Assembly (NCBI GenBank): GCA_040757475.1
Contig: JBFLWW010000002.1
Span: 23,818-87,817 of the forward strand
Source: Nitrospirota bacterium
GTDB taxonomy: Bacteria > Nitrospirota > Thermodesulfovibrionia > Thermodesulfovibrionales > SM23-35
Length of the DNA: 64,000 nucleotides
Direction of reading: 5' to 3'
The notes under the pieces were generated by a model, which was not told the origin of the DNA, ran no database searches, and saw only the letters and a program-made list of their open reading frames with translations. Positions 11,437 through 63,734 of the stretch are shown here, piece after piece; the stretch's first letter is position 1, and every line of letters begins with the position of its first letter. A program made the position numbers and the translations under genes.

Positions 11437-13638
11437 ATGACTATGAAAGCGTTTAAAAAGCGTGTTATCTATTATCTGTTATCTGTTATTTTAATTTCAC
11501 TGTTCACTGTTCACTGTTCACTGTTCACTGTTTATGCTGAGACAAAAAAGGCTGATGAGAAGGTTACATTCAATTTCGTGGATGTTGACCTCGCCACTAT
11601 AACAAAATTTATAAGTGATATTACAGGGAAGAATTTTATCTTTGATGAGAGGGTGAAAGGCAAGATAACAATAATAGCCCCTTCTAAATTAAGTGTTGAC
11701 GATGCATACAATCTTTTCACATCCGTGCTTGAGCTTAAAGGCTTCACAGTTGTCCCATCAGGTGTTGACGCATATAAGATTATCCCTGCTATAGAGGCAA
11801 AACAGCGTGGGATACAGCTTGGTGCTGAGAGAGTGCCTGTTAATGAAAGCTACATAGCAAGACTTCTACCTTTAAAACATATATCCTCGGATGATGCCCT
11901 GAGATTTCTCCAACCCCTTATCTCAAAGGATGGTCATATATCCACATTCGGCCCTGGCAACCTTCTCCTTGTTGTTGACTCTGGACTGAATATTGAAAAG
12001 ATTCTTTCAATTATTGAGGCTATAGACCAGCCGTCAGCAAGAGAAGAACCTGAAATTGTCTTTCTCAAACATTCAAGCGCAGATGCCGTTGCAAAGATTC
12101 TCAATGAGGGTTTTGGAAAGGAAAGGACAAGGGCTGTTCCAGGCCAGCCACCACATATTGAGGAAGGCAGGGCAGTGGCTGACCAGAGGCTCAATGCTAT
12201 TGTCCTCTTTGGAGACAAAGGTGTCAGGGAATTCATGAAGGGACTGATAGCCCTGTTAGATGTGCCTTCGCCTGAGGCCCAGGGAAGGATAAATGTCTAT
12301 TTCCTTGAAAATGCTGATGCAACCGAGCTTGCAAAGGTCCTTGAGGGTATGCTGAAGGGTGCACAACCTGCAAGACAGGTCGCCCCTCCTGCACCGGGTG
12401 CTCCGCCAGTCACTCCCTTTGAGGCAGTTGGCGGCATAACCATAACACCTGATAAGGCCACAAATTCCTTTGTGATAGTTGCCTCACCAGCAGACTATCA
12501 GAACCTCTCACAGATTATAAAACAGCTTGATAAAAGGAGAAGACAGGTATTTGTTGAGGCAATGATTGTTGAGGCATCAATTGATAAGCTGAGGGAGTTG
12601 GGTGCAAAATGGAGAGCAACAGGAAGACATGAGGGAGAGCCTATAGTAATAGGCGGTTTCGGAACCATGAACCAGTCAGCACTTCAGTCTGTGATTTATG
12701 GGCTGACAGGTCTTACAGCTGGAGGAATGGGAAATTTCCTTGATATAAAGCTTACCACGCTTGATCCAACTACTGGTAAAGTTACAGAAGGCACTGTCAC
12801 AGTGCCTGGTTTTGCAGCCATCTTTAGCCTCAGTGAGTTTAAGGATGCTGTAAATGTCCTTTCAACCCCCCAGATTCTCACATCTGATAACAAAGAGGCA
12901 GAGATTGTGGTCGGTGAGAATGTTCCATTCATATCAAAAAGGGAAGCTGACCCTGCAAGAACCCTGTCTATGTTCACCACTATTGAAAGAAAGGATGTCG
13001 GAATCACGCTTAAAATAACCCCACAGATAACTGAAGGAGACTATGTCAAGCTTGATATATATCAGGAGATATCAGCGCTGGTATCTCCACCTGCTGGGCT
13101 TGAAGAGGCCATTCTTACAGGCGTGGGACCTACTACAACAAAACGCTCAACAAAGACATCGGTTGTGGTAAAGGACAGGCAGACTGTTGTTATCGGAGGC
13201 CTCATGCAGGAAAGGGATGCGGAGAACCTGACAAAGGTTCCGCTTCTTGGAGATATACCACTTCTTGGATGGCTTTTCAAATATAAGAGTGTCTCAAAGA
13301 AAAAGACAAACCTGCTTGTATTTCTTACACCTCATGTTGTTAAAAAGGCAGAAAATCTTGCGCAGATTACAAGAGATAAAGAGAAGGAGTTTGCAAGGGT
13401 GGAAAAGCAGTATAAAGAAGGAGAGCTTTTAATAAAGTTCAAAGAAGGGGTTTCAGAGGAGAGAGCACTATCAATAATCTCTGAAAAGGGTGCATCAGTT
13501 ATAACATTTATCGAGAACATTAAGGTCTATCATATAAAACTCAGAAAGAGGCAGGATGTAGAAGATGCCCTGAAGGAATTTTCTGAGATGCCAGAGATTC
13601 AATATGCAGAGCCGAATTATGTAATTAAAATAAAGTGA
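11437..13638 (+). CDS. gspD: Type II secretion secretin GspD with an extra C-terminal subtilase-propeptide (I9)-like domain
   Basis: 733 aa with N0-N3 domains and a secretin core (VPLLGDIPLLGWLFKYKS). The C-terminal 72 aa are not typical of secretins. The signal peptide is encoded by a heptamer array. Confidence 0.85.
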   Translation: MTMKAFKKRVIYYLLSVILISLFTVHCSLFTVYAETKKADEKVTFNFVDVDLATITKFISDITGKNFIFDERVKGKITIIAPSKLSVDDAYNLFTSVLELKGFTVVPSGVDAYKIIPAIEAKQRGIQLGAERVPVNESYIARLLPLKHISSDDALRFLQPLISKDGHISTFGPGNLLLVVDSGLNIEKILSIIEAIDQPSAREEPEIVFLKHSSADAVAKILNEGFGKERTRAVPGQPPHIEEGRAVADQRLNAIVLFGDKGVREFMKGLIALLDVPSPEAQGRINVYFLENADATELAKVLEGMLKGAQPARQVAPPAPGAPPVTPFEAVGGITITPDKATNSFVIVASPADYQNLSQIIKQLDKRRRQVFVEAMIVEASIDKLRELGAKWRATGRHEGEPIVIGGFGTMNQSALQSVIYGLTGLTAGGMGNFLDIKLTTLDPTTGKVTEGTVTVPGFAAIFSLSEFKDAVNVLSTPQILTSDNKEAEIVVGENVPFISKREADPARTLSMFTTIERKDVGITLKITPQITEGDYVKLDIYQEISALVSPPAGLEEAILTGVGPTTTKRSTKTSVVVKDRQTVVIGGLMQERDAENLTKVPLLGDIPLLGWLFKYKSVSKKKTNLLVFLTPHVVKKAENLAQITRDKEKEFARVEKQYKEGELLIKFKEGVSEERALSIISEKGASVITFIENIKVYHIKLRKRQDVEDALKEFSEMPEIQYAEPNYVIKIK
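11464..11533 (+). repeat. Heptamer lattice, 10 units (4x GTTATCT-type, 1 transitional unit, 5x ACTGTTC), encoding the gspD signal peptide
   Basis: Read directly from the sequence. It is in register over 70 nt and translates VIYYLLSVILISLFTVHCSLFTV. Confidence 0.9.
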
Positions 13639-15176
13639 AGAATGCAGAAGCCATGAAAACCATCAACAGCATAAAAGACGATGATGTAGAGCCTTCACTT
13701 GTTAAAGAAGTTCCACTCTCTTTTGCAAAAGGCAATCTGATAATGCCTCTTAGAAGGGAAGATGGAGCCCTTCTGGCTGCTGTTGCAGATGAAAAGGGAA
13801 TCCTTGCTTTATTTGAACTGTCTAAACGCTTTGGCCTTAAACCATTACCTCTGAATGCACAATCAGGAGTGGTTATTGATGCTATTAACAGGTTCTATGG
13901 CCAGCTCGGCTCTGCAGAGGAGGTGATGGATAATATAACAGGCGAAGACCTTTCATCTGTTGCCACAGAGTTTGAAAGACCAAAGGACCTTCTTGAGCTT
14001 ACAGAAGAGGCTCCAATAATCAGGCTCTTTAATGCCCTCCTTCAGCAGGCGGTCAAAGAGAGGGCTTCTGATATACATATAGAGCCTTATGAGAAGGAAC
14101 TCGATGTGAGGATTAGGGTAGATGGGATTTTACACAGGGTTTTAAGTCCACCAAAGATAATTCAGGATGCATTGATAAGCAGGGTAAAGATTATGGCAAA
14201 CCTTGATATAGCCGAGAAGAGACTACCTCAGGATGGAAGGATAAGACTTCTTATTGGTGGAAGGGATATAGATGTAAGAGTCTCTATAATCCCAACATCT
14301 TATGGTGAGAGGGCAGTGTTGAGGCTACTTGACAGGAGACAGGGACTTATAGGGCTATGGGAGGTAGGTCTTAACAAGGAGGATGAGAAGCGACTCGAAG
14401 GACTCCTTCAGAGAACAAACGGGATACTGCTTGTTACAGGTCCCACAGGTAGTGGCAAGACAACCACACTCTATGCTGCACTGAACAGGATTCATACAGA
14501 AGAAAAAAATATCATAACTGTTGAAGACCCTGTGGAATACCAGCTTAAAGGTATCGGTCAGATACAGGTTAATCCAAAAATAGGTTTAACCTTTGCGTCA
14601 GGGTTGAGGTCAATCTTAAGGCAGGACCCTGATGTGATAATGGTTGGCGAGATTAGAGACATCGAGACAGCCGAGATAGCAATCCAGGCATCTCTCACAG
14701 GCCATCTCGTCTTGAGCACACTTCATACAAACGACGCCTCATCAGCCATTACAAGGCTTTTAGATATGGGAGTTGAGCCATTTCTTGTGGCATCATCCCT
14801 TGTAGGTGTCCTTGCACAGAGGCTTGTGAGGATTATATGTCCCAATTGTAAAGAATCATACGAACCCTCAGATGCTGAGAAATCATATTTTCTTGACTCG
14901 TCACTTGTCATTCTATACAGAGGCAGGGGCTGTGAGAGATGCAAAGGTAAGGGCTATATTGGAAGGACAGGGATATTTGAACTCCTAATCATAGACAACG
15001 AAATACGCCCTATGATTACAGATAGAGTAGATGCACAGAGTATAAAGAACTTCGCTATATCAAAGGGGGTTAAGAGTCTGAGGATGGACGGGATTAGTAA
15101 AGCCTGTGCTGGCATTACTACATTAGAGGAAGTGCTGAGGGTTACTCAGAAGGATTATGCCAATTTTTTCGTATAG
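13635..15176 (+). CDS. gspE: Type II secretion ATPase GspE
   Basis: Walker A GPTGSGKTT, Asp/His boxes, and a tetracysteine motif CPNC...CERC. Confidence 0.9.
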   Translation: MKNAEAMKTINSIKDDDVEPSLVKEVPLSFAKGNLIMPLRREDGALLAAVADEKGILALFELSKRFGLKPLPLNAQSGVVIDAINRFYGQLGSAEEVMDNITGEDLSSVATEFERPKDLLELTEEAPIIRLFNALLQQAVKERASDIHIEPYEKELDVRIRVDGILHRVLSPPKIIQDALISRVKIMANLDIAEKRLPQDGRIRLLIGGRDIDVRVSIIPTSYGERAVLRLLDRRQGLIGLWEVGLNKEDEKRLEGLLQRTNGILLVTGPTGSGKTTTLYAALNRIHTEEKNIITVEDPVEYQLKGIGQIQVNPKIGLTFASGLRSILRQDPDVIMVGEIRDIETAEIAIQASLTGHLVLSTLHTNDASSAITRLLDMGVEPFLVASSLVGVLAQRLVRIICPNCKESYEPSDAEKSYFLDSSLVILYRGRGCERCKGKGYIGRTGIFELLIIDNEIRPMITDRVDAQSIKNFAISKGVKSLRMDGISKACAGITTLEEVLRVTQKDYANFFV

Positions 15177-16332: not shown

Positions 16333-16334
16333 AA

Positions 16335-16769: not shown

Positions 16770-17205
16770 AGCGGGATTCACGCTCCTTGAGCTGATAATT
16801 GTTATATTTATACTCTCACTTGTAATGGCTGTGGTCTTTCCATCTTTTTATGGAATTGTAGATGGAAGGCTTAAATCAGAGTCAGGTAAGATTGCGTCTT
16901 TATTAAGGTATCTGAATGATAGCGCAATCTCCAGAAAAGAAACATTTATACTTAAGATTAACCTTGATAGTAATACCTTCTTATGGGAAGGTCCTGATGG
17001 TAAAAGGTCAGAAAGTTTCAATGGTCTTTTAGATATTTTTACAACCTCAACAGGAAGTGTCTCAAGGGGTGAGGTGATACTTTCTTTCGGTCCCCTCGGC
17101 ATTCAGGAGAATCTCAGAATCCACCTGAGGGATAAAGATAAGGAAATGGCGGTTACGCTTAACCCGATGAGTGGAAGGGTAAAAATAATTCAAAGTTCAA
17201 AATGA
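16738..17205 (+). CDS. gspH: Minor pseudopilin GspH
   Basis: The leader is MQTLRTGSYSKAG/FTLLELIIV. It overlaps the gspG 3' end. Its C-terminal IQSSK* and its stop codon lie inside a repeat element. Confidence 0.6.
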   Translation: MQTLRTGSYSKAGFTLLELIIVIFILSLVMAVVFPSFYGIVDGRLKSESGKIASLLRYLNDSAISRKETFILKINLDSNTFLWEGPDGKRSESFNGLLDIFTTSTGSVSRGEVILSFGPLGIQENLRIHLRDKDKEMAVTLNPMSGRVKIIQSSK

Positions 17206-17265
17206 AAAATTCAAAATTAAGGAATTCCAAAATTTTTAATTTTAAATTTTTAATTTTAAATTCCC
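17189..17265 (+). repeat. 77-nt AT-rich inverted heptamer element (11 units, core TTAAGGAATTCC), copy 1
   Basis: TTCAAAG TTCAAAA TGAAAAA TTCAAAA TTAAGGA ATTCCAA AATTTTT AATTTTA AATTTTT AATTTTA AATTCCC. It spans the gspH stop and gspI start. Confidence 0.9.
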
Positions 17266-17609
17266 GCCCACATCAGGTGAGCGGGTTCGCCCTCCTCGAG
17301 GTTATGATTGCAGTTGGCATTGTTGGGGCCCTCCTTGTTACCCTCATATATACATTGAATTATAATCTTGGCATTGCTGAAAGACACGAGACTATTACTG
17401 TTGCAGCTATACTTGCAAGAGATAAAATTTCCGAGATAGAGAAAATGCCTGTTGATTCCAGAGGAGAATTCCCTGAACCTTATTCTGATTATCAATATGA
17501 GACCACAGTCAAAGAATCCGTATATCCTAACATATCAGAAATATCAGTTGTTGTTAGAAAAGGGAAAGAAGAGGTTAAACTCAGCGAATTAATTCAAAGT
17601 GCAAAATGA
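17202..17609 (+). CDS. gspI: Minor pseudopilin GspI (repeat-encoded long leader)
   Basis: ATGA overlap with the gspH stop. The cleavage motif is QVSG/FALLEVMIAVGIV. The first ~22 codons lie in the 77-nt repeat element. Confidence 0.6.
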   Translation: MKNSKLRNSKIFNFKFLILNSRPHQVSGFALLEVMIAVGIVGALLVTLIYTLNYNLGIAERHETITVAAILARDKISEIEKMPVDSRGEFPEPYSDYQYETTVKESVYPNISEISVVVRKGKEEVKLSELIQSAK

Positions 17610-17669
17610 AAAATGCAAAATTAAGGAATTTCAGAATTTTTAATTTTGAATTTTCAATTTTAAATTTCC
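17593..17669 (+). repeat. 77-nt AT-rich inverted heptamer element, copy 2 (about 88% identical to copy 1)
   Basis: TTCAAAG TGCAAAA TGAAAAA TGCAAAA TTAAGGA ATTTCAG AATTTTT AATTTTG AATTTTC AATTTTA AATTTCC. It spans the gspI stop and gspJ start. Confidence 0.9.
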
Positions 17670-20710: not shown

Positions 20711-20712
20711 GA

Positions 20713-25044: not shown

Positions 25045-26705
25045 AACTTAGAGAACTTCTTCACGGTTGTGATTATATTGACTCCTCACTTGTCACTTGT
25101 CACTTGTCACTCGATACGGACATCTCAGGTGTAGCTTATGATTCGAGAAAGGTGAAAGAAGGTTACCTGTTTGTGGCGATAAAAGGTGAGAAGCACGATG
25201 GCCATGATTTCATCGGTGATGCAATTAAGCGAGGAGCAGTGGCAATAGTGCATGAAAAAACAGTAACGAGTTACGAGTTACGAGTTACGAGTAAAGAAAA
25301 AGACTTGTCACTTGTCACTCGTCACTTGTCACTTATTCAGGTCAAAAACAGCAGAAAGGCACTTGCCTGTATCGCAAATAATTTTTACGGGAGGCCCTCT
25401 GAGAGGCTCACAGTTATAGGTATAACCGGTACAAACGGGAAGACAACGACAACATATCTCCTTAAATCTATACTCGAATCGTGGGGAAAAGAAATCGGTC
25501 TTATTGGAACAATACAATACATGATAAAGGACAAAAGTTACTCTGCATTATATACAACACCCGAGGCATTAGAGTTCCATGGACTTTTAAGAGATATGCT
25601 CTTATCAGGGTGCACGCATATCATATCAGAGGTCTCATCACACGCCCTTGCTCAGAGCAGAGTGGATGGGACTGTTTTTAAGACTGTAGCGTTTACAAAT
25701 CTCACAAGGGAACATCTGGACTTCCATAAAACTTTGGAGGATTACTTCAGGGCAAAGGAGAGACTGTTTAGAGAGCTTCTCGATAAGGATGGGACCTCTG
25801 TAATAAATCTCGATGACCTATATGGAAAAAGACTGATCTCTTCACTCAGCAGCGGGGTCCCCAGAAAGTCGCAAGACTTTCTGGGGCGTATATTAACATA
25901 CGGCCTTGAGACAGGAGCAGACATTATGGCGAGGGATATCAATAGTTCATTCAAAGGGTTGAGGTTCAAAATAGCATTCCGTGGCAGGAATTATAATATC
26001 TCATCTGCTCTGATGGGTCTACCAAATGTATACAATATTATGTCTGCAGCTGGGGCATCAATCTCGATAGGAGTTCCATGGGATATAATTCTTGAGGGTA
26101 TAAAAAATTTAGGCACTGTTACAGGCAGATTCGAAAAGGTTAATCTTGATCAGAATTTTCTGTGTATCGTTGATTATGCCCATACAGAGGATGCCCTCGA
26201 GAGGCTGATATATACAGCGAGGGAACTTATAAATAAGCCTTTAGTCAATAGTCATCAGTCATTAGTGAAAGACAGTAACAAGTTACGAGTTACGAGTAAC
26301 AAGTATGAAGATAAGAACTTGTCACTTGTTACTTGTCACTCGTCACCCCGTATTATTACTGTCTTTGGGTGTGGAGGAGATAGAGATCGCAGTAAGAGAC
26401 CGGGGATGGGTACAGTAGCAACAAGGCTTAGCGATTTTGTGATTATCACCTCTGACAATCCGAGGTCTGAAGACCCGAACAAAATAATTAGAGAGATTGA
26501 AGCAGGAGCTATAAGGAGAAACTATATAATCGAACCTGACAGAGCAGAGGCAATCAAAAGAGCTATTATGCTGGCAGGCGAGGGAGATATTGTCCTTGTT
26601 GCAGGCAAGGGACATGAGGATTATCAGGAAATTAAAGGTGTAAGGTATAGATTTAATGACAGGGAAATATTAGAAAAGGCGATCAAACAAAGAATAAAGT
26701 CGTAA
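25041..26705 (+). CDS. murE: UDP-MurNAc-tripeptide synthetase MurE, carrying three in-frame repeat insertions
   Basis: Contains DSRKV, GITGTNGKTTT, DYAHTEDAL and GCGGDRD. The ORF is 554 aa versus roughly 490-500 aa typical. Confidence 0.9.
   Translation: MKLRELLHGCDYIDSSLVTCHLSLDTDISGVAYDSRKVKEGYLFVAIKGEKHDGHDFIGDAIKRGAVAIVHEKTVTSYELRVTSKEKDLSLVTRHLSLIQVKNSRKALACIANNFYGRPSERLTVIGITGTNGKTTTTYLLKSILESWGKEIGLIGTIQYMIKDKSYSALYTTPEALEFHGLLRDMLLSGCTHIISEVSSHALAQSRVDGTVFKTVAFTNLTREHLDFHKTLEDYFRAKERLFRELLDKDGTSVINLDDLYGKRLISSLSSGVPRKSQDFLGRILTYGLETGADIMARDINSSFKGLRFKIAFRGRNYNISSALMGLPNVYNIMSAAGASISIGVPWDIILEGIKNLGTVTGRFEKVNLDQNFLCIVDYAHTEDALERLIYTARELINKPLVNSHQSLVKDSNKLRVTSNKYEDKNLSLVTCHSSPRIITVFGCGGDRDRSKRPGMGTVATRLSDFVIITSDNPRSEDPNKIIREIEAGAIRRNYIIEPDRAEAIKRAIMLAGEGDIVLVAGKGHEDYQEIKGVRYRFNDREILEKAIKQRIKS
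25080..25114 (+). repeat. Heptamer array (GACTCCT, 3x CACTTGT, CACTCGA) in the murE N-terminus
   Basis: Read directly from the sequence. It translates DSSLVTCHLSLD. Confidence 0.9.
25262..25338 (+). repeat. Composite inverted heptamer element (5x AGTTACG-type, spacer unit, 5x CTTGTCA-type) in murE
   Basis: 11 units on one lattice. It translates VTSYELRVTSKEKDLSLVTRHLSL. Confidence 0.9.
26241..26345 (+). repeat. Composite element of 15 heptamers = 35 codons in murE
   Basis: 4x TAGTCA-type, 5x AGT[TA]AC[AG]-type, a spacer, then 4x CTTGT[CT]A-type units. It translates LVNSHQSLVKDSNKLRVTSNKYEDKNLSLVTCHSS. Confidence 0.9.
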
Positions 26706-31267: not shown

Positions 31268-32281
31268 ATGAGAAAGTCATTAGTCATTAGTCATCAGTCA
31301 TCAGTCATAATAAGGAAAAGATTATTATTTATTGTAGTCTTTTTACTTCTCACTTCTCACTTTTCACTTTCAACTTTGTTTGCTGATGAGATCCATTCCC
31401 GTGCCGCCCTTGTTATGGATGCGTCAACAGGAAAGGTGCTTTATGCAAAAAATCTAAACCTTAAGCTTCCTCCTGCGAGTACAGCAAAGCTGATGACTGC
31501 TATTGTGGCAATTGAAAAGGCAGACCTCAATGATGTTATTACGATAAGCAAAAGAGCAGTCAGTGTTGCTCCAACAAAGGCTGGATTTAAGGCAGGAGAA
31601 AAGGTGACAATTGAGACGCTTCTTTATGCAGCGCTTCTCAGGTCTGCAAATGATGCTGCTACAGCCCTTGCAGAAGCTGTAGCTGGTTCAGAAGCTAAGT
31701 TTGTCCAGCTTATGAATAGAAAGGCGATTGCTATTGGAGCAAAGGATACAAAATTCATAAACCCACATGGACTTCCTGGCCCTGACCAGTATATTACAGC
31801 CCATGACCTTTCAAAGATAATGAGACATGCGCTCAAATATCCCAGACTAAAAGAGATCATCGGGACTCGTGTTGCAGAGGTCTCAATAAAAAGGGGGAAG
31901 TCCATATCTCTTGAAAACACAAACAGACTTTTGTGGGTTGACGAATACCTTGTGGGTGGTAAGACAGGATATACCCGTAAAGCAAGGCATTGTTTTGCAT
32001 GTGCCTGTAAACGCAAAAAGAATACAGTTGTAGTTGCCCTCCTCGGCAGTCCAAGCAGGGAAAACCTATGGAAAGAAGCAGAATTACTGATTGATAAGGG
32101 ATTCCAGATAATGGCAAATAAAGAAGAACCTGTCATCTATTTTACAAAGGCAGATTATGATGCACTTAATGTGAAGAAGGCATCCTATAAGAAAAGTTCA
32201 AAGTTCAAAAGTTCAAAGTTAAAGGCTTCATCACTTAAGTATAGGGTTGCAAAGAAAGGTGAGGATGGGAATAAAGGATAA
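31268..32281 (+). CDS. dacA: D-alanyl-D-alanine carboxypeptidase (S11, PBP5/6-like) with repeat-encoded signal peptide and tail
   Basis: Contains SxxK (ASTAK), SxN (SAND) and KTG (GKTGYT). ATG 31268 follows AAGGTGAGGTGA. Confidence 0.8.
   Translation: MRKSLVISHQSSVIIRKRLLFIVVFLLLTSHFSLSTLFADEIHSRAALVMDASTGKVLYAKNLNLKLPPASTAKLMTAIVAIEKADLNDVITISKRAVSVAPTKAGFKAGEKVTIETLLYAALLRSANDAATALAEAVAGSEAKFVQLMNRKAIAIGAKDTKFINPHGLPGPDQYITAHDLSKIMRHALKYPRLKEIIGTRVAEVSIKRGKSISLENTNRLLWVDEYLVGGKTGYTRKARHCFACACKRKKNTVVVALLGSPSRENLWKEAELLIDKGFQIMANKEEPVIYFTKADYDALNVKKASYKKSSKFKSSKLKASSLKYRVAKKGEDGNKG
31274..31308 (+). repeat. Heptamer array (3x AGTCATT, 2x AGTCATC register) at the dacA N-terminus
   Basis: aagtcat tagtcat tagtcat cagtcat cagtcat, which translates KSLVISHQSSVI. 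Confidence 0.9.
31340..31374 (+). repeat. Heptamer array (TTCTCAC/TTTTCAC) forming the dacA signal-peptide h-region
   Basis: tttttac ttctcac ttctcac ttttcac tttcaac, which translates FLLLTSHFSLST. Confidence 0.9.
32193..32221 (+). repeat. AAAGTTC array in the dacA C-terminal tail
   Basis: aaagttc aaagttc aaaagttc aaagtta, which translates SSKFKSSKLK. Confidence 0.85.
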
Positions 32282-33674
32282 AAAAGTAACCGTAGTAGGC
32301 CTTGCCAGGAGCGGCGTAGGCGCAGCAAACCTTTTATCAGAACTCGGAGCTGATGTAACAGTAACAGACAAAAAAACAGAATATGAATTAAAGGATTTTG
32401 TAAAAAAGCTTAATCCTTCTATAAAACGTGCATTAGGAGGACACCCGGAAGATATATTCACATCAGCTGATATGATAGTCGTCAGCCCTGGTGTTCAGCT
32501 TGACACTCCACCCATTACTAATGCAAAAGCAAAAGACATCCTAATAATTGGCGAGCTTGAACTTGCATATCAGATAATAAGTTCAAAGTTCAAAATTCAA
32601 AGTTCAAAGTTTCCAAAATTTTTAGCAGTAACAGGTACAAATGGGAAGTCTACTACTACAACATTACTCGATCTTATGCTAAAGAAATGTGGGTTCGAGA
32701 CCCTTTTAGGAGGGAATATAGGGAATGCCCTGACCTCGTCACTTCTCACTTCTCACTTCTCACCTGATTACATTGTTGCTGAGGTATCGAGCTTTCAGCT
32801 TGAGTCAATAAAGGATTTCAGGCCAAAGGGTGCTGCTATCCTTAACATTACTCCTGATCACCTTGACCGATACTACTCACTCGAAGAATACAGAGATGCA
32901 AAGGCAAAGATATTTGAAAACCAGCAGGAGGACGATTTTCTGGTAATTAATGCAGATGACCCTGAAACAATGAAAGTTCAAAGTTCAAAGTTCAAAGTTC
33001 AAAGTGAAAAACCAAAAGTCTTTTACTTTAGCCGTAAGAAAGAGGTCAAGGGTATTTATTTCAAAGATGGACGAATCTATTGTAATTTCCCTGACTCCTC
33101 ACTCCTCACTCCTCACTTCCCACTTATAAAGGCTGATGAGATAAAGATAAAGGGTGTCCATAACCTGGAGAATGCCATGGCTGCTTCGGCCATGGCTCTC
33201 CTTGCAGACTGCCCCCTAAAGGCAGTGATAGATTCCTTGAGAGAATTTCCTGGTCTTGAGCACAGGCTTGAATTTGTCAGGGAGATAAATGGCATCCGAT
33301 ACATCAATGATTCAAAAGGGACTAATGTAGGTGCAGTCATCAAGTCACTTGAAAGCTTTACGAAGCCGATTGTTTTAATCGCGGGTGGAAGAGATAAGGC
33401 AGGAGATTTTTCGTTATTGGGACATTTAGTGAGAGAAAGGGTGAAGGCAATTATATTAATTGGTGAGGCAAGTGAAAAGATAAAAAAAGCCCTCGGTGAC
33501 CTTACAGAGACAGTGATGGCAAAAGACTTAAGAGATGCTGTAATAATATCACATAACAAGGCAGTGAATGGCGATGTAGTCCTGCTTTCGCCGGCATGTG
33601 CAAGTTTTGACATGTTTATGGACTTCGAGGACAGAGGAAGACAGTTTAAAGATATTGTATGGAGTTTGAAATGA
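32265..33674 (+). CDS. murD: UDP-MurNAc-L-Ala--D-Glu ligase MurD with four in-frame repeat arrays
   Basis: Contains VVGLARSG, VTGTNGKSTT, EVSSFQLE and DSKGTN. The start is probably ATG 32265, overlapping the dacA end. Confidence 0.9.
   Translation: MGIKDKKVTVVGLARSGVGAANLLSELGADVTVTDKKTEYELKDFVKKLNPSIKRALGGHPEDIFTSADMIVVSPGVQLDTPPITNAKAKDILIIGELELAYQIISSKFKIQSSKFPKFLAVTGTNGKSTTTTLLDLMLKKCGFETLLGGNIGNALTSSLLTSHFSPDYIVAEVSSFQLESIKDFRPKGAAILNITPDHLDRYYSLEEYRDAKAKIFENQQEDDFLVINADDPETMKVQSSKFKVQSEKPKVFYFSRKKEVKGIYFKDGRIYCNFPDSSLLTPHFPLIKADEIKIKGVHNLENAMAASAMALLADCPLKAVIDSLREFPGLEHRLEFVREINGIRYINDSKGTNVGAVIKSLESFTKPIVLIAGGRDKAGDFSLLGHLVRERVKAIILIGEASEKIKKALGDLTETVMAKDLRDAVIISHNKAVNGDVVLLSPACASFDMFMDFEDRGRQFKDIVWSLK
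32581..32611 (+). repeat. GTTCAAA array in murD (before the P-loop)
   Basis: gttcaaa gttcaaa attcaaa gttcaaa, which translates SSKFKIQSSKF. Confidence 0.9.
32739..32766 (+). repeat. TCACTTC array in murD (after GNIGNAL)
   Basis: 3x tcacttc plus tcacctg, which translates SLLTSHFSP. Confidence 0.9.
32973..33007 (+). repeat. AAAGTTC array in murD
   Basis: 4x aaagttc plus aaagtga, which translates KVQSSKFKVQSE. Confidence 0.9.
33093..33125 (+). repeat. CACTCCT array in murD
   Basis: gactcct cactcct cactcct cacttcc cactt, which translates DSSLLTPHFPL. Confidence 0.9.
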
Positions 33675-34894: not shown

Positions 34895-36025
34895 ATGAGG
34901 GTAATAATAGCAGGAGGAGGTACAGGTGGACATCTTTTCCCAGGCTTGGCAATAGCTGAGGAGTTTAAGAGAAGGGATGAAAAAACAGAGGTTATATTTG
35001 TCGGGACAGAGCACGGTATAGAGGCGAAGGTAATCCCGAGAGAAGGATACCCGATAAGACTTTTAAGGGCAGAGGGCATCGTGGGCGTATCTGTAATCAA
35101 AAAGGTAAGGGCGGCCGTCAAGATGTTCCTTTCTGTGATTGATTCCTACAGGATCCTCAGGGCAGTGAAGCCTGCTATAGTTATAGGGGTCGGAGGATAT
35201 GCATCAGGGGTATTTGTATTTACTGCATATCTCATGTCAATACCAACAATGATACACGAGCAAAATTCTGTTCCCGGCCTTGCAAATAGAATCCTCGGAA
35301 AATTCGTGAGGGCAATATGCACAACATATCAGGAGAGTCTCTCATTCTTTCCAAGGGCCAGGAGTTTTCTTACAGGAAACCCTGTAAGGATGCAAATACT
35401 AAAGGGCAGCAGGGATTCTGCATACAGACTCTTCTACCTCGACAGTGATCTATTTACAGTATTTATCTTCGGAGGGAGTTTGGGTGCATCGAGTATAAAC
35501 AGGGCTATGGTAGATGCCCTCAATTATCTATATGACCTGAGAGACAAGATCCAATTTCTCCACCAGACAGGAGAAAAAGATTACGAAAATATTCGTGAGG
35601 TATACCGAAGGCTGGGGTTTAAAGGGATGGTCGCTTCGTTTATATATCAGATGGCTGAGGCATATGCAGTTGCAGATATAGTTATTTCAAGGGCGGGTGC
35701 AACAGCCCTGTCAGAACTGACTGCTATCGGAAAGCCTGCAATATTAATCCCTTATCCATATGCAGCAGGACAACATCAGGAATTGAATGCAGGTAAGCTC
35801 GTTGAGATGGGTGCAGCTAAGATGATACTTGACAGTGAGCTTAGAGGCGAATCTCTTGCCAGTTATATAAGAGAATTGTATATGAATAAGGCACTGAGAG
35901 AGGAGATGCAGAAACAGAGCCGCTCGCTTGGAAGGCCTGAGGCATGCAGTAAGGTGGTTGATATAGCAATGAGCTTCATAAGACAGTCAATAGTCAGTAG
36001 TCATCAGCCAAAAGGAGAGGGATAG
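34895..36025 (+). CDS. murG: UDP-GlcNAc--lipid I transferase MurG
   Basis: Contains GGTGGHLFPGLA and QHQELNA. Confidence 0.9.
   Translation: MRVIIAGGGTGGHLFPGLAIAEEFKRRDEKTEVIFVGTEHGIEAKVIPREGYPIRLLRAEGIVGVSVIKKVRAAVKMFLSVIDSYRILRAVKPAIVIGVGGYASGVFVFTAYLMSIPTMIHEQNSVPGLANRILGKFVRAICTTYQESLSFFPRARSFLTGNPVRMQILKGSRDSAYRLFYLDSDLFTVFIFGGSLGASSINRAMVDALNYLYDLRDKIQFLHQTGEKDYENIREVYRRLGFKGMVASFIYQMAEAYAVADIVISRAGATALSELTAIGKPAILIPYPYAAGQHQELNAGKLVEMGAAKMILDSELRGESLASYIRELYMNKALREEMQKQSRSLGRPEACSKVVDIAMSFIRQSIVSSHQPKGEG
35984..36011 (+). repeat. AGTCA-type heptamer array forming the murG C-terminal tail
   Basis: cagtcaa tagtcag tagtcat cagccaa, which translates QSIVSSHQP. Confidence 0.8.
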
Positions 36026-37437
36026 TGTTTGAGAGATACAGAGTAATACATTTTGTTGGAGTAGGTGGCATAGGGATGTCAGGTATTGCAGAACTCCTTC
36101 ACAACCTCGGCTATGAGGTTACAGGCTCAGATTTAAGGGATTCAGAGACAACAAGGAGATTGAGAGAATTAGGCATGAAAGTCTATATAGGCCATAAGGC
36201 AGAGAATATAGACAATGCCCATGTGGTGGTTGTATCCTCAGCAGTCCTGGGTAATAATCCTGAAGTGCTTGAGGCAGAGAGAAGATCTATACCTGTAATT
36301 CCGCGTGCAGAAATGCTCGCAGAGCTGGCAAGACTGAAATACGGGATACTTATTGCAGGTGCACATGGCAAGACGACTACAACCTCATTAATATCCACTA
36401 TCCTTGCACATGGAGGCTTTGACCCTACAGTTGTTATTGGTGGAAAACTTAAGGGATTAGGTAGTAATGCAAGGCTTGGTGAGGGAAAATTTCTTGTTGC
36501 AGAGGCTGATGAGAGTGACGGTTCATTCCTGAAACTCTCTCCAACTATTGCGGTTGTCACAAATATAGACAGGGAACACATGGATTTCTTCAAGACAATG
36601 GATTCATTGAAAGAGGCATTTCTATCCTTTATGAATAAGGTCCCATTTTATGGTGTATCAATAGTGTGCATTGAGAACGAACATCTCCGTGAACTTTTAC
36701 CATCTATCCACAGGAGATACATCACTTATGGACTCTCTCAAGATGCGGAGCTTTGTGCAACAAATATAAAAAGGGGCTTTATGTCAATGAGTTTTGATGT
36801 GTTGCATAAAGGAGAAAACATTGGGAATTTTACTATCCCTGTCATAGGGATACATGATGTCCTTAATAGTCTTGCGAGTATCGGGACAGCATTAGAACTC
36901 CAGATGGATGTATCGAAGATAAAGGATGCATTGAAGGGTTTCAGCGGTATACAGAGGAGGTTTGAGTTCAAAGGGGAAGCTGGAGGCATAAGGGTATTCG
37001 ATGATTACGGTCACCACCCCACAGAGGTAGAGGCAACCTTGAAGGCAGGGAAGGAAGGACTCTTAAATACTCAGAAGTCAAAAGTCGAGGGTCGAGAGTC
37101 AGGAAGATTATTTGTCATTTTCCAGCCTCATAGGTATACGAGGACAAGAGACCTGATGCAGGAGTTTTCTCTTTCATTTAAGGATGCAGATTCTCTCGTC
37201 CTTCTGGATATTTATTCTGCAGGAGAGAAACCTATAGAAGGCGTAAGCTCAGCAACATTGTGTGAAAGTATTAAAAAAGCAGGTCATAAAAGTGTTGTGT
37301 ATATGAAAGATAGGAAAGATGCGATAGGACATATTATCTCAAATATACGTGGGGGCGATGTACTGCTTACGCTTGGTGCTGGAGATATATGGAAAGTGGG
37401 GGAAGAGATACTCAATAAGTTAAAAATGAAGGGTTAA
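36025..37437 (+). CDS. murC: UDP-N-acetylmuramate--L-alanine ligase MurC
   Basis: Contains HFVGVGGIGMSG, GAHGKTTTTS and FQPHRYTRT. Confidence 0.9.
   Translation: MFERYRVIHFVGVGGIGMSGIAELLHNLGYEVTGSDLRDSETTRRLRELGMKVYIGHKAENIDNAHVVVVSSAVLGNNPEVLEAERRSIPVIPRAEMLAELARLKYGILIAGAHGKTTTTSLISTILAHGGFDPTVVIGGKLKGLGSNARLGEGKFLVAEADESDGSFLKLSPTIAVVTNIDREHMDFFKTMDSLKEAFLSFMNKVPFYGVSIVCIENEHLRELLPSIHRRYITYGLSQDAELCATNIKRGFMSMSFDVLHKGENIGNFTIPVIGIHDVLNSLASIGTALELQMDVSKIKDALKGFSGIQRRFEFKGEAGGIRVFDDYGHHPTEVEATLKAGKEGLLNTQKSKVEGRESGRLFVIFQPHRYTRTRDLMQEFSLSFKDADSLVLLDIYSAGEKPIEGVSSATLCESIKKAGHKSVVYMKDRKDAIGHIISNIRGGDVLLTLGAGDIWKVGEEILNKLKMKG
37073..37100 (+). repeat. Degenerate period-7 array (NNNNGTC x4) inside murC
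   Basis: agaagtc aaaagtc gagggtc gagagtc, which translates QKSKVEGRES. Confidence 0.65.
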
Positions 37438-37461
37438 AAGTGAAAAGTGAAAAGTTAAAAG
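37434..37461 (+). repeat. TGAAAAG array (reverse orientation of TCACTTT) at the murC/murB junction
   Basis: ttaaaag tgaaaag tgaaaag ttaaaag. It contains the murB GTG start and translates VKSEKLKE. Confidence 0.85.
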
Positions 37462-41657: not shown

Positions 41658-41685
41658 TTTTTTATAGAAATAACATCAGAATATT

Positions 41686-41736
41686 AAAAATTGCAAATTG
41701 AAAATTTTAAATTTCAAATTTAAAATCTAAAAATTC
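41686..41736. repeat. AAATTNN heptamer array between 5S rRNA and tRNA-Ala
   Basis: aaattgc aaattga aaatttt aaatttc aaattta aaatcta aaaattc. Confidence 0.8.
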
Positions 41737-41849: not shown

Positions 41850-41926
<77 letters not shown>

Positions 41927-42918: not shown

Positions 42919-43569
42919 ATGCTTATTCGTATGCCTTTTACAGTTTGGTTTTTTTCACTTCTCACTTTTCACTTTTCACTTTTTGCTGTCTCTTTTGCTG
43001 CCTCATCCGTTGAGGAGGACATCGCAAGAATCCAGAAGGCTTATGATAGCATTAAAGACATTAAGGGAAGTTTTGTACAAAAGAGCCATATAAAGGACCT
43101 GAAGCGAACAGATACTTATAAAGGAGAATTCTTTATAAAGAGGCCACAGAAGATGAGGTGGGAATATAAAGGCGATAAAGCTCAGGAGGTAATCATCAAC
43201 AACAAGGATATCATAATATACCAGAAGGAAGAAAGGCAGGCGTTTAGAGGTAAATTTGATAGAGATACATATGGTCAGGCACCCATAGCCCTCCTCAGCG
43301 GATTCAGAGACATACAGAAGGAGTTTGTTGTATCAAAGAAAAATAGCACTCTTCTGCTTAAACCAATAAGGCCGATGGGAAATATCCTGTCTATTAAGAT
43401 AGAGCTTTCTGATAATAAATTCCCTATCAACTCATTTACCATAAACGACACGCACTCAAATTTGATAAAGATTATGCTGAAGGGCGTGAAGATAAATACA
43501 GGCTTGAAGGATTCTATTTTCGAGATTTCATTACCAGAAGACACGAAAATAGTGGATGAATTTCTTTAG
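42919..43569 (+). CDS. lolA: LolA-like periplasmic lipoprotein carrier
   Basis: Signal peptide, then IKGSFVQKSHIKDLKRTDTYKGEFFIKRPQKMRWEY, a LolA-type pattern. The signal-peptide h-region is a heptamer array. Confidence 0.6.
   Translation: MLIRMPFTVWFFSLLTFHFSLFAVSFAASSVEEDIARIQKAYDSIKDIKGSFVQKSHIKDLKRTDTYKGEFFIKRPQKMRWEYKGDKAQEVIINNKDIIIYQKEERQAFRGKFDRDTYGQAPIALLSGFRDIQKEFVVSKKNSTLLLKPIRPMGNILSIKIELSDNKFPINSFTINDTHSNLIKIMLKGVKINTGLKDSIFEISLPEDTKIVDEFL
42951..42985 (+). repeat. C(T)TTTCA heptamer array forming the LolA-like signal-peptide h-region
   Basis: tttttca cttctca cttttca cttttca ctttttg, which translates FFSLLTFHFSLF. Confidence 0.9.
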
Positions 43570-48122: not shown

Positions 48123-49214
48123 GTGATGTTAATCCTTGGAATAGATACCTCCTGTGATGATACATGTGCGTCAGTCGTCGAAGACGGGGTCAGAATAATC
48201 TCCAATATCGTCTCGACCCAGACAGAGATACATAAGAAATACGGTGGCATTGTGCCTGAGCTTGCATCAAGAAGACACATAGAGATGATATGGCCTGTTG
48301 TTGATGAGGCAGTGAAAGGCGCAGGGATTGAACCTGAAGACCTGTCTGCTATAGCAGTATGCCATGGTCCAGGACTGATAGGTTCCCTCCTCATAGGCTG
48401 TTCCTTTGCAAAGGCGATATGCTATTCAAAAAATGTCCCTCTTGTTACTGTAAACCACCTTGAGGGTCATATATTCTCTTGTTTTTTAAGGGAAGGGGGT
48501 TTCATGGAGGAAACTCCGTTTCCCCCATGCACTCCTGAATTTCCATTCCTATCCCTCATCGTCTCAGGAGGCCACACATGCCTCTACAGGGTTGATGGCT
48601 TTGGTAGATATAGAGAACTCGGCAGAACACGGGATGATGCTGCAGGTGAGGCATATGACAAGGTCTCAAAACTCCTTGGTCTCGGATACCCTGGCGGCCC
48701 TGTTATAGATAAACTCGCACAGGATGGAAACCCTGATGCAGCAGATTTCCCGAGGCCGTATCTGCCTGAATCCTTTGATTTCAGCTTCAGCGGACTTAAA
48801 ACCGCAGTGCTGAATTTCGTAAAAACAACAGTCATTAGTCAACAGTCATTAGTCAGTAGTCAAAAAACCAGTGACCAATGTCCAATGACCAATGACCAAT
48901 CCCACTTGTCACTGGCGGATATTGCTGCATCATTTCAGGCATCTGTAGTAGATGTACTTGTAAAGAAAACAGAATGGGCAGTAAAAAAAGAACGGATAAA
49001 AAGGGTTGCCCTCTCAGGTGGAGTCTCTGCAAACAGTGAATTGAGAAAAGGGATGAAGGGAATGGGTGATGCGATAGGAGTGGAGATATTTATACCTCCT
49101 GTATCATTGTGCACAGATAATGCTGCCATGATTGCTGGAGCTGGATATCATCATTTCAATGCCGGCAATATTGCAGGGCTTGATCTCAATCCACAGGCGT
49201 ATCTGCCGCTATAA
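48123..49214 (+). CDS. tsaD: tRNA N6-adenosine threonylcarbamoyltransferase TsaD with an 84-nt in-frame repeat insertion
   Basis: Contains ILGIDTSCDDT, HLEGH, SGGHT and FSFSGLKT. The ORF is 363 aa versus about 335-340 aa typical. Confidence 0.9.
   Translation: MMLILGIDTSCDDTCASVVEDGVRIISNIVSTQTEIHKKYGGIVPELASRRHIEMIWPVVDEAVKGAGIEPEDLSAIAVCHGPGLIGSLLIGCSFAKAICYSKNVPLVTVNHLEGHIFSCFLREGGFMEETPFPPCTPEFPFLSLIVSGGHTCLYRVDGFGRYRELGRTRDDAAGEAYDKVSKLLGLGYPGGPVIDKLAQDGNPDAADFPRPYLPESFDFSFSGLKTAVLNFVKTTVISQQSLVSSQKTSDQCPMTNDQSHLSLADIAASFQASVVDVLVKKTEWAVKKERIKRVALSGGVSANSELRKGMKGMGDAIGVEIFIPPVSLCTDNAAMIAGAGYHHFNAGNIAGLDLNPQAYLPL
48827..48910 (+). repeat. 12-unit (84 nt = 28 codons) composite inverted heptamer element inside tsaD
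   Basis: aacagtc attagtc aacagtc attagtc agtagtc aaaaaac cagtgac caatgtc caatgac caatgac caatccc acttgtc. Confidence 0.9.
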
Positions 49215-51426: not shown

Positions 51427-51434
51427 AACTAAAT

Positions 51435-51525
51435 TAGAAATGAGAAATGGGAAATGGGAAGTAGGAAATGGGCGGTTAAGATTTTACTTCTTACTTCTCA
51501 CTTCTTACTTCTTACTTCTCACTTT
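51435..51525 (+). repeat. 13-unit composite inverted heptamer element (GGAAATG-type arm / TTACTTC-type arm) downstream of radA
   Basis: tagaaat gagaaat gggaaat gggaagt aggaaat gggcggt taagatt ttacttc ttacttc tcacttc ttacttc ttacttc tcacttt. Confidence 0.9.
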
Positions 51526-56612: not shown

Positions 56613-56622
56613 ATATACTAAA

Positions 56623-56709
56623 TGCAAAATTCAAAAAGCAAAATTCAAAAATCCAATTCAAGATTTAAAATTTCCTTAATTTTGCATTTTTCATTTTTAA
56701 TTTAAAATT
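56623..56709. repeat. AT-rich inverted heptamer element in the glyA-nrdR spacer
   Basis: Positions 56673-56696 are the exact reverse complement of 17604-17627 (24 nt). Confidence 0.9.
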
Positions 56710-56713
56710 TACT

Positions 56714-59690: not shown

Positions 59691-59753
59691 ATAATTTAAA
59701 AATTTTGGTTTTTTCGTATAAAAGTTGAAAAGTATATTTATTATAAAAGCAGT

Positions 59754-59831
59754 CTGGATTCCTGCTTCCGCAGGAATGACACTTCGAAAATTGCCCTTCC
59801 TTATGTCATTCCCGTGAAAACGGGAATCCAG
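59754..59831. repeat. Inverted pair of 28-nt 'GGAATCCAG / GTCATTCC' palindromic repeat units
   Basis: CTGGATTCCTGCTTCCGCAGGAATGACA (59754-81) and TGTCATTCCCGTGAAAACGGGAATCCAG (59804-31). This is the same family as the widespread repeat that yields spurious 'LDSRFRGND / IPAFAGMT' ORFs. Confidence 0.7.
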
Positions 59832-59862
59832 AGTTAACAAACTTTAAAAGAGGTATTTTCAG

Positions 59863-61344: not shown

Positions 61345-61357
61345 TAATGAAACATCA

Positions 61358-61484
61358 ATTCAAAATGCAAAATGCAAAATTAAAAATTTCAGAGCAAAAT
61401 TCAAAATTAACCACAATCTTAACTATGCATGTTCTTTTAATTTTGAATTTAAATTTTGCATTTTTAATTTTAAATTTTAAATTT
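61358..61484. repeat. Largest AT-rich inverted heptamer element (127 nt) in the lysS-lolC spacer
   Basis: The left arm is caaaatg/caaaatt units (61358-61409). The loop is 61410-61435. The right arm is aattttg/aatttta units (61436-61484). Confidence 0.85.
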
Positions 61485-63021: not shown

Positions 63022-63734
63022 AAGGGGCAAAGGTGATTGAGATAAAGGATTTAAAAAAATCCTTTATTACAGATGCTGGTGAGCTTCAGGTACTGAAGGG
63101 CATTGATCTTTCAATAAAGGAAGGAGAAATAGTTGGGATAGTCGGTGCATCAGGTGTAGGGAAAAGTACGCTTCTGCATATCTTAGGTGCACTGGATAGG
63201 CCGACCTTCGGCAAGGTCTTCTATAATAGCACTGATATTTTCTCCCTTGATGAAGATTCACTCGCCTCCTTCAGAAACAATACTATCGGCTTTGTCTTTC
63301 AATTCCATCATCTACTCCCTGAATTTACAGCCATTGAGAATGTTATGATGCCAGGACTTATCAATGTAAGTTCAAAAGTTCAAAAGTTCAAAAGTTCAAA
63401 GTATAAAGAAATCCTTGAAAGGGCAGGAAGACTTCTCGATGAGCTGGGTTTATCCGAAAGAAAAAGACACAGGCCAGGAGAACTATCCGGAGGTGAACAG
63501 CAGAGGGTTGCGGTTGCAAGGGCACTTGTCCTTGAACCAAAGGTTGTCCTTGCAGACGAGCCCACAGGTAATCTTGACACAGCAACAGGTGAGGAATTAT
63601 TTAACCTCCTTATCAACCTTAATAAAGAAAAAAGGATTACATTCGTCATTGTCACACATAATGAGACCCTTTCAAATCACTGCCACAGGGTTCTCAAAAT
63701 GGTGGATGGGAGAATAGTTGCAGGTTTGGGGTAA
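63018..63734 (+). CDS. lolD: Lipoprotein-releasing ABC transporter ATP-binding protein LolD with an in-frame repeat insertion
   Basis: Walker A GASGVGKST, signature LSGGEQQRVAVARAL, Walker B VLADEPTGNLD. Confidence 0.9.
   Translation: MKGAKVIEIKDLKKSFITDAGELQVLKGIDLSIKEGEIVGIVGASGVGKSTLLHILGALDRPTFGKVFYNSTDIFSLDEDSLASFRNNTIGFVFQFHHLLPEFTAIENVMMPGLINVSSKVQKFKSSKYKEILERAGRLLDELGLSERKRHRPGELSGGEQQRVAVARALVLEPKVVLADEPTGNLDTATGEELFNLLINLNKEKRITFVIVTHNETLSNHCHRVLKMVDGRIVAGLG
63371..63401 (+). repeat. TTCAAAAG octamer array (3x 8 nt plus one 7-nt unit) inside lolD
   Basis: ttcaaaag ttcaaaag ttcaaaag ttcaaag, which translates SSKVQKFKSSK. Confidence 0.9.

Follow-up and report, generated by a model that had tools for sequence, protein, structure and literature searches.

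Heptanucleotide micro-arrays threaded through cell-wall and housekeeping genes in a clade of Thermodesulfovibrionia

The window considered here is a stretch of 64,000 nt from a groundwater Nitrospirota metagenome-assembled genome (MAG) of the Thermodesulfovibrionia (GenBank assembly GCA_040757475.1, contig JBFLWW010000002.1), and its division and cell wall (dcw) genes and their neighbours are interspersed with short tandem arrays of 7-nt units. These arrays form a DNA-level repeat class that is common to one Thermodesulfovibrionia clade and draws on a restricted, TCA/AGT-rich set of units. They are probably dispersed heptanucleotide micro-arrays of the kind called short tandemly repeated repetitive (STRR) sequences, turning over by slippage and recombination and filtered by selection; as such they mark an extreme within a kind of bacterial repeat that is known but little understood, and are not a new coding system. 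The window was compared at three levels of divergence, with a 99%-identical strain (locus L115, hereafter strain 2), a 91%-identical relative (L004/L029) and loci at ~70% identity. Clade figures refer to the window and 20 related loci, 328 kb together.

Array census and element sites

Tandem Repeats Finder (TRF) located 34 distinct period-7 arrays between positions 11463 and 61484, together with a single period-8 array in lolD (63368-63400), which the first-pass annotation of this DNA had counted among the 7-nt arrays. A simple self-match scan returned 29 period-7 arrays and 0-1 at each other period from 4 to 12, and Markov shuffles (n=20) held 0-1 period-7 arrays each, with a mean of ~0.1, which confirms the excess that the annotation had noticed. 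The copy numbers given by TRF in the window run from 2.7 to 7.7 units rather than the 4-18 first proposed. NCBIfam models agreed with the host genes as first named and added gspD; the genes identified in this way are gspD, ftsI, murE, murF, ddl, mraY, a dacA-like carboxypeptidase, murD, ftsW, murG, murC and murB, and, further on, lolA, tsaD, radA, glyA, lysS and lolD.

Across the clade there are 134 arrays, ~1 per 2.4 kb, with a median length of 31 nt (10th-90th percentile 25-37 nt), i.e. ~4.4 units; 64% of them have 4.x units and few have 2-3. The units are strongly biased in sequence: the observed and expected shares of units are 53% and 13% for TCA, 19% and 0.7% for TCACT, and 43% and 4% for an AGTBA/TVACT core. 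An excess of tandem 7-nt repeats, dispersed and shared by related genomes (the window and 20 loci), is what STRR-like heptanucleotide arrays display. Zero arrays were found in the Dissulfurispiraceae locus L012, in another Nitrospirota locus (L013) and in most outgroups.

The arrays are reproduced by independent data. By its MurD and MurE the window belongs to the Nitrospirota, class Thermodesulfovibrionia. The window MurE is identical to NCBI MEW6674573.1, positions 32976-41622 are 100% identical in an independent Logan assembly of SRR29635772, and the same arrays stand in a second MAG (GCA_049324155.1) and in two further Logan assemblies, which are 98-99% identical. An assembly or sequencing artefact might be suspected because arrays are where contigs often end in independent assemblies (L004/L029 break inside murD). 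Since independent assemblies and a second MAG hold the same sequence, and considering that the arrays occur clade-wide in genomes from many studies and that the reading frames are intact across every genic array, we regard this explanation as effectively excluded, with next to no probability left to it. A single metagenome scan with MurD returned no relative above 73% identity, and so gave no strain-level data.

The element sites of the window are as follows, each with its strand and with the observations that concern it alone.

11463..11532 (+): gspD pair, (TGTTATC)x3.9 then (TTCACTG)x5.3, encoding the h-region of the GspD signal peptide (VIYYLLSV..ISLFTVHCSLFTV); no hairpin (z = +2.1)
17187..17262 (+): type A AT-rich composite, (AATTCAA-like)n, GGAATTCC loop, (AATTTTN)n; family D1, also I3; overlaps gene 16705-17205 at its stop and pseudopilin 17202-17609 at its start and long leader
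17595..17667 (+): another type A copy (92% identity to 17188-17262) where pseudopilin genes 17202-17609 and 17606-18244 meet; D1, D6
25086..25111 (+): murE site 1, (TCACTTG)x3.7, aa 16-23, SLVTCHLS; the 91% relative has a GC-rich hairpin there instead
25262..25334 (+): murE type B hairpin, (AGTTACG)x4.4, 10-nt loop, (ACTTGTC)x4.6, aa 74-98; fold of -29.7 kcal/mol, z = -4.4, equalled by 0/200 shuffles; 36-nt 5' arm missing in L004
26241..26346 (+): third murE site, (TTAGTCA)x3.7 then type B hairpin (AGTWACR)x4.6 + (ACTTGTC)x4.3, aa 401-435; D9, 89%; hairpin z = -5.8; replaced by GC-rich elements in L004
31275..31377 (+): dacA-like N-terminal pair, (AGTCATY)x4.9 + (CTTYTCA)x4.6-5.5, in the n- and h-regions of the signal peptide, directly after the mraY stop; no significant hairpin in the window (z = -1.7); both arms different in every relative
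32193..32224 (+): dacA-like C-terminal tail, (AAAGTTC)x4.6 including one 8-nt unit; SSKFKSSKLK
32579..32611 (+): murD site 1, (AAGTTCA)x4.7, linker before the P-loop; 30-nt array present in L002, missing in L004
32739..32763 (+): murD site 2, (TCACTTC)x3.6, in a loop; (GGCGTAA-like)n plus (TCACGCC)n in L004
32973..33005 (+): murD site 3, (AAAGTTC)x4.7; Logan contig L114 breaks here
33090..33125 (+): murD site 4, (CCTCACT)x4-5; (CGTCACT)n with a nested 30-nt GC-rich hairpin in L004
34807..34888 (+): type A hairpin over the ftsW C-terminal tail, stop codon and ftsW-murG spacer, loop CGGAATTCC; D1 (84%), I2, I4; a (CACTGTT)n hairpin in its place in L029; +2 nt in strain 2
35985..36003 (+): murG C-terminal tail, (AGTCAAT)x2.7
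37417..37461 (+): murC/murB junction, (AAGTGAA/AAGTTAA)x6.4, holding the murC stop and the murB start
41683..41732 (no strand assigned): 5S rRNA/tRNA-Ala spacer, (ATTTAAA)x7.1
42952..42983 (+): h-region of the lolA signal peptide, (TTTTCAC)x4.6; FSLLTFHFSL
48826..48900 (+): tsaD hairpin, 75 nt, (CAACAGT/CATTAGT)x5.4 + (ACCAATG)x4.9, aa 236-259; z = -6.2; an insert of ~25 aa relative to PDB homologues
51431..51524 (+): hairpin over the radA stop and the start and signal peptide of a lipoprotein gene, (AAATGRG)x4.3 + (TTACTTC)x5.9; z = -6.0
56620..56711 (no strand assigned): type A-like pair filling the glyA-nrdR spacer
61357..61484 (no strand assigned): type A-like long hairpin filling the lysS-lolC/E spacer; I1
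63368..63400 (+): lolD array, (AAGTTCAA)x4.1, period 8, aa 117-127; same in strain 2

Several neighbouring observations concern the same stretch. A degenerate copy of family D1 (65% identity to the 75-nt AT-rich composite) lies at 20705-20779, at the junction of genes 20207-20710 and 20719-21516, and suggests that old elements decay in place. On the minus strand at 41538-41926, the 5S rRNA gene (41538-41654) directly follows tRNA-Ile and tRNA-Ala, the heptamer array forming the Ala-5S spacer; there are no 16S or 23S genes in the window and the arrangement around the 5S gene is the same in L029. The locus has the look of a remnant rRNA operon or of a 5S gene that is unlinked. At aa 124-135, TsaD is longer than its PDB homologues by a 12-aa segment (GGFMEETPFPP; 48489-48530), which may be a decayed copy of a GC-rich hairpin element of the sort described below. 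Heptamer arrays are missing from the first 11.4 kb of the window, where the only match, at 7231, has 2.3 copies. Minus-strand genes hold 0/22 window sites although they make up 17% of genic bp, and in the clade loci 2 arrays lie in 15 kb of minus-strand sequence against 121 in 281 kb, both tests being underpowered; the array-poor segment and the minus-strand gap could be due to the orientation of the strand or of replication, or the segment could have had another history. Unrelated loci from a deltaproteobacterium, an Acidobacteriaceae MAG, a Victivallales MAG and Cysteiniphilum (L020, L055, L037 and L041) contain 2-4 period-7 arrays per ~20 kb each, and similar arrays may thus exist in other phyla.

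Placement in genes and the reading-frame filter

Formally the arrays are mostly genic, as first stated, 24/34 lying fully within an open reading frame (ORF), but that description hides their bias towards gene ends: 13/22 element sites lie 60 nt or less from the start or stop of a gene, where 4.6 would be expected (P = 2e-4). Whole spacers between co-directional genes are filled (glyA-nrdR, lysS-lolC/E and ftsW-murG). In proteins, the arrays encode the h-regions of four signal peptides (GspD, DacA-like, LolA and a lipoprotein) and two prepilin leaders of unusual length, as well as C-terminal tails (DacA, FtsW, MurG and MurC) and loops or linkers in MurE, MurD, TsaD and LolD, as placed by alignment to PDB structures. 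An AlphaFold2 model of MurE has a mean predicted local distance difference test (pLDDT) score of 83, with values below 50 exactly at aa 16-19 and 401-432 and only moderate ones at aa 74-98. Among 120 MurE relatives the three array sites range over 14-59, 17-50 and 10-55 aa, and the whole protein from 488 to 620 aa; no 7-aa periodicity is found in these homologues, since arrays of ~10 aa are too short to show it. The array segments are absent from orthologues outside the clade, in keeping with the earlier proposal that they are lineage-specific insertions relative to other phyla.

All in-ORF arrays are read through without a stop, as had been reported, and the translations (SSKFKIQSSK, SLLTSHFS, SLVTCHLS and others) match the peptides first quoted. 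The window proteins would yield the tryptic peptides FLAVTGTNGK, preceded by IQSSKFPK, from MurD and TSDQCPMTNDQSHLSLADIAASFQASVVDVLVK from TsaD. How the frame survives can be seen in the comparison with L004/L029, where nearly every indel of >=6 nt coincides with an array site and the genic indels measure 27, 18, 36, 15, 6, 9, 12, 3, 48, 30, 51 and 30 nt: each length can be divided by 3, but none by 7 or 21. Insert lengths in multiples of 21, claimed in the first-pass annotation, are therefore ruled out, and the tsaD element itself is 75 nt and not 84. The frame is kept because the total length of the insert is a multiple of 3. An example is the dacA-like tail (32193..32224), which relative to L004 has lost one unit (-7) and gained one base, a net change of 6 nt that leaves an 8-nt unit behind. 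We likewise reject ribosomal bypassing and RNA-level excision, given that every genic insert lacks stops and has a length divisible by 3.

A second filter acts on stop codons. Among 82 in-ORF arrays the consensus unit holds a stop triplet in 26% of cases on the sense strand and 76% on the antisense strand, against ~35-43% expected, and the sense-strand cases escape without exception (21/21) through a variant in every third unit, where the stop would be in frame, for example AGTCATT AGTCATT AGTCATC or AACTCTG AACTCTG AACTCCG. Stops are thus avoided by the choice of unit and by variants in every third unit. The frame-independent 7-aa peptide pointed out at first follows from arithmetic, because 7 and 3 are coprime, and is no property that the sequence exploits; it is a by-product and no designed coding device, and because arrays have ~4.4 units (~10 aa) only ~1.5 copies of the 7-aa repeat are ever made.

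Pairing and turnover

Roughly half of the arrays are members of adjacent pairs with near-complementary units, and the other half or so are solo. In the 27 adjacent pairs of the clade the mean unit complementarity is 4.96/7, against 3.71 in random pairs; it reaches >=5/7 in 19/27, compared with 18% of controls, and 7/7 in none. Several adjacent pairs can form a long hairpin with ~6 paired bases and one mismatch per heptad. Four pairs in the window fold into such zipper-like structures (murE aa 74-98, murE aa 412-435, tsaD aa 236-259 and the radA/lipoprotein junction), with ~1 mismatch per heptad, z of -4.4 to -6.2 and 0/200 shuffles as good, and the AT-rich junction elements fold more weakly (z = -1 to -2.6). 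The 5' arms of the coding hairpins read GTTA, GTAA or GTCA, whereas the perfect complement of TCAC is GTGA, which would create TGA; avoidance of TGA may explain much of the regular arm mismatch.

Some pairs recur as composites. The 75-nt AT-rich composite with its non-periodic GGAATTCC loop is found at 17188, 17592 and 34814, and the type B arrangement, (AGTTACG)n-loop-(ACTTGTC)n, occurs twice in the window murE and also in the murD of L003 and the dacA of L011. The DacA signal peptide carries a pair in every genome compared, with different units that nevertheless usually co-vary. Two other kinds of hairpin share this landscape. GC-rich hairpin elements occupy the same permissive sites in relatives (L003, L004 and L009; murD and murE hot spots), where they translate as ...PPIPPLLKGGKGG... 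or ...LTLPPEGGGQGWGG..., and one 30-nt copy is nested in a heptamer array of L004. Upstream of lysS, at 59753-59832, lies an 80-nt compound hairpin, each arm of which is a small hairpin itself; it recurs at 89% identity at a non-orthologous site of L003 (14138-14217), in a genome ~74% identical overall, and appears to represent a second, MITE-like (miniature inverted-repeat transposable element) dispersed family.

Comparison with strain 2 (98-99% identity) shows length change in steps of the unit, a further trait of STRR-like arrays. Its array indels are of 14 nt at 17230 and 14 nt in the glyA-nrdR spacer (56620..56711), both deletions of 2 units, 21 nt, or 3 units, in the lipoprotein element, and 2 nt; the first-pass annotation had suggested that copy numbers be compared between strains. 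In the lipoprotein element (51431..51524) the 3-unit deletion lies in the N-terminal ORF and is accompanied by 11 substitutions, and substitutions are enriched there. No general enrichment is seen: in the dcw region 5/133 point substitutions fall in arrays, against 5.3 expected. Only seven non-array indels occur in the remaining ~44 kb, an indel density ~30x higher in arrays, and the internal arrays of murE, murD, tsaD, lolA and lolD are unchanged in length.

The 14-nt deletion at 17230 throws the pseudopilin ORF 17202-17609 of the type II secretion system (T2SS) out of frame in strain 2, so the frameshift hazard inherent in a 7-nt unit, predicted at the outset, is real. It is seen here under relaxed selection, because the T2SS of this strain also lacks gspD, gspE and gspF and carries another frameshift. 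Strain 2 is without window positions ~5319-7742 and 8436-16715 (which include these three genes) and has a 1-nt frameshift at 18460; its T2SS seems to be decaying, unless the MAG is misassembled.

Replacement is seen as well as resizing. The lysS-lolC/E element (141 nt) is wholly replaced in strain 2 by an unrelated hairpin with hexamer arms, of which there is no other copy in the DNA compared, and the density of single-nucleotide polymorphisms (SNPs) is raised on one flank. Within a minus-strand radical-SAM gene at 58750-59250 the two strains diverge by ~11%, against ~1.3% elsewhere, a tract that bears the signature of homologous recombination import. Given the raised flank SNPs and this separate divergent tract, homologous import of a diverged allele would suffice to explain the lysS-lolC/E replacement. 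In the 91% relative and beyond, orthologous sites have differing units (TCACTCC, TCACTCG, TCACTCA), arms are gained or lost, and some sites carry altogether different elements, including GC-rich hairpins.

Origin, precedents and significance

We infer that slippage and recombination underlie these changes at the molecular level, and that the arrays have no dedicated function. Whole units would be gained or lost by replication slippage, and arrays would be homogenised or swapped through recombination or templated copying, both between arrays and between alleles. They would persist only where they are tolerated: at the junctions of genes, in signal and leader peptides, in C-terminal tails, in the linkers between domains and in loops at the surface; within genes, selection would keep sense-strand stop-free versions with a total length that is a multiple of three, and these would be translated into disordered or low-complexity, dispensable segments.

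A number of points weigh against this account. Simple slippage leaves unexplained the narrow length peak (64% at 4.x units, with few at 2-3), the unit bias (the excess of TCA and TCACT) and the near-complementary, lineage-co-varying adjacent arms. Composites with shared non-periodic loops at unrelated loci point to copying as a unit, and the enrichment at gene boundaries could mean a function in mRNA processing or stability and not mere tolerance. The translation of the arrays is itself presumed from intact reading frames. With their narrow range of lengths, skewed unit sequences, complementary arms and composites scattered over loci, the arrays go beyond plain slippage, which keeps mobile-element and functional explanations alive.

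According to the mobile-element explanation, the arrays would be non-autonomous elements like MITEs, repetitive extragenic palindromes (REP) or short dispersed repeats (SDR), with heptamer-lattice arms, copied as hairpin units by a trans-acting enzyme into preferred targets that include existing arrays. This would fit the dispersed composite families that share non-periodic loops and ends (D1, D9), the recurrence of the same unit pairings at non-orthologous genes across genomes (type B), presence or absence relative to the 91% relative in the 30-nt and 36-nt cases, and the GC-rich hairpin nested in a heptamer array; the other small hairpin, at 59753-59832, is clearly dispersed between genomes. 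The complete replacement of the element 3' of lysS in a 99% strain also fits, but homologous import between strains could account for it. In the clean insertion cases there are no target-site duplications, nor any terminal inverted repeats other than the arrays themselves; roughly half of the arrays stand alone, unit sequences vary continuously from site to site, and neither the window nor the orthologous annotated loci contain a transposase-like gene. We find this explanation unlikely. A function at the RNA or DNA level, through intercistronic hairpins that stabilise or punctuate mRNA, modulation of translation initiation, or sites for a regulator that reads heptads, strikes us as a little less probable again. 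Sites are enriched at gene boundaries, elements fill whole co-directional spacers and cover start codons, arms stay near-complementary despite sequence change between lineages, array length is narrowly distributed, and similar readings have been offered for Geobacter (PMC2700814) and Beggiatoaceae (PMC4679880). Yet many arrays are solo, the adjacent pairs of gspD and dacA are non-complementary, the AT-rich junction hairpins barely beat shuffles, and folding energies are alike on the plus and minus strands, giving no consistent G-U signature of RNA structure; close relatives moreover lose, replace or resize elements without visible change in the surroundings, and the internal sites of murD, murE and tsaD have no obvious regulatory logic.

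The unit-sized strain indels (14, 14 and 21 nt), one of which frameshifts a pseudopilin leader, might also suggest contingency loci, in which genes are switched on and off by gain and loss of units. Such loci often flip frame within populations and as a rule concern surface or restriction-modification genes. The hosts here, however, are essential single-copy housekeeping genes, the arrays are short, those of the essential genes (murE, murD, tsaD) keep the same length in strains ~1% apart, and the sole frameshifted case belongs to a T2SS locus that strain 2 is losing; phase variation is so improbable that we treat it as effectively excluded.

Slippage and recombination under selection also agree with what is found in other bacteria. 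Strict STRR units, namely CCCCAGT, TTGGTCA and CAACAGT, are known from heterocystous cyanobacteria, where they are mainly intergenic; these sequences reportedly go back to Mazel et al. in 1990. In the tsaD element the unit CAACAGT is that of STRR3, and TGACCAA is the reverse complement of STRR2, TTGGTCA. The arrays are nonetheless not STRR in the strict cyanobacterial sense, since such units occur in the tsaD element only, the host is a nitrospirotan and most arrays overlap ORFs. Both analogies drawn in the first-pass annotation, with STRR and with Rickettsia palindromic elements (RPE), are apt. Like RPEs, the hairpins of murE sites 2 and 3, tsaD and the lipoprotein are inserted in frame in protein genes at permissive surface sites, solo arrays being the exception; RPEs sit in housekeeping genes at permissive surface positions and are translated with the host protein. 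RPEs differ in being 100-150 nt long, in forming recognisable sequence families and in lacking an internal tandem lattice, whereas the present elements are 25-130 nt, with arms that are ~31-nt heptamer micro-arrays, also occur singly and change by unit slippage. No homology to RPE families was seen, and none of the elements matches a family in Rfam. Palindromes or MITEs that are coding and in frame are also known as the QMITEs of Coxiella (PMC5896051) and from the mitochondria of Nematomorpha (PMC6649704).

We found no description of such arrays in Nitrospirota in the literature, but the initial statement that there is no described case at all was too strong given two systems. In Geobacter metallireducens, Aklujkar et al. 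2009 (PMC2700814) described 49 elements, each made of four GGACCGG heptamers in tandem, that lie inside genes, at times several in one gene, as well as in the spacers, along with a five-unit MTYCTGA class and paired sites of 7-9-nt tandem repeats on opposite strands. The MTYCTGA class matches the unit CTTCTGA of L010, and both systems favour ~4-5 units. They differ in that the main Geobacter family is GC-rich, that its authors favour regulator-binding or RNA elements and analysed neither reading frames nor hairpins and compared no strains, and that there are tens per Geobacter genome, in a different phylum, against ~1 per 2.4 kb here. In marine Beggiatoaceae, TAACTGA direct repeats cluster at gene boundaries (MacGregor 2015, PMC4679880); forward repeats give stops in all frames and only the reverse survives in ORFs, encoding LSVISYQ, mostly at protein ends and including MurG. 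The relative L002 alone has exactly this unit, as (AGTTATC)x4.4, giving LSVISYQLSV in its DacA signal peptide, whereas the window units AGTTACG and TTATCTG are one-base variants; enrichment at gene boundaries is common to both. The Beggiatoaceae repeats have one dominant unit, lie mostly between genes and upstream of start codons, with 24/169 sets touching ORFs (PMC4679880), while the Nitrospirota arrays have many unit types, overlap ORFs in the majority and form many inverted pairs. In Xanthomonas and Nostoc, GGGNATC arrays likewise prefer about four units, which Rehm et al. 2015 (PMC4692102) attributed to G-quadruplex formation; those arrays, from other phyla, are over-represented in non-coding DNA and under-represented in genes. 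A G-quadruplex cause cannot apply here because the units are AT-, T- and C-rich.

What is unusual in this clade is the density of the arrays, the share that overlaps essential coding sequence, the inverted pairs with regular mismatch and the availability of three divergence levels that expose turnover; the paired hairpin architecture, the boundary enrichment and the strong unit bias were all absent from the first-pass annotation. One could imagine, as a speculation to which we attach a rather low probability, that the 7-nt lattice is the footprint of a specific mechanism common to Thermodesulfovibrionia, Geobacter, Beggiatoaceae, cyanobacteria and Xanthomonas, which writes or copies ~31-nt (4-5 unit) arrays with an AGT/TCA core, often as inverted pairs; here the arrays would have been selected stop-free and so have become able to colonise essential genes, and the hairpins might afterwards have been put to use as signals between cistrons, in RNA or DNA, and as material from which signal peptides are made.

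Of all long simple repeats in bacteria, heptanucleotide arrays are the most over-represented, and this lineage provides an unusually dense and well-controlled case of them. It demonstrates that such arrays can reside in essential cell-wall and tRNA-modification enzymes, where the marks of selection on them are visible as stop-free orientation, third-unit variants and a net length that is a multiple of 3, and that they turn over in steps of whole units, put down to slippage, as well as through complete replacement. In practical terms, the arrays fragment assemblies, make proteins longer (MurE has 488 to 620 aa in the clade) and mislead the calling of start codons. The preference for about four copies of units that are not G-rich speaks against G-quadruplexes as the reason for it in Xanthomonas and Nostoc, and suggests a cause of wider reach.

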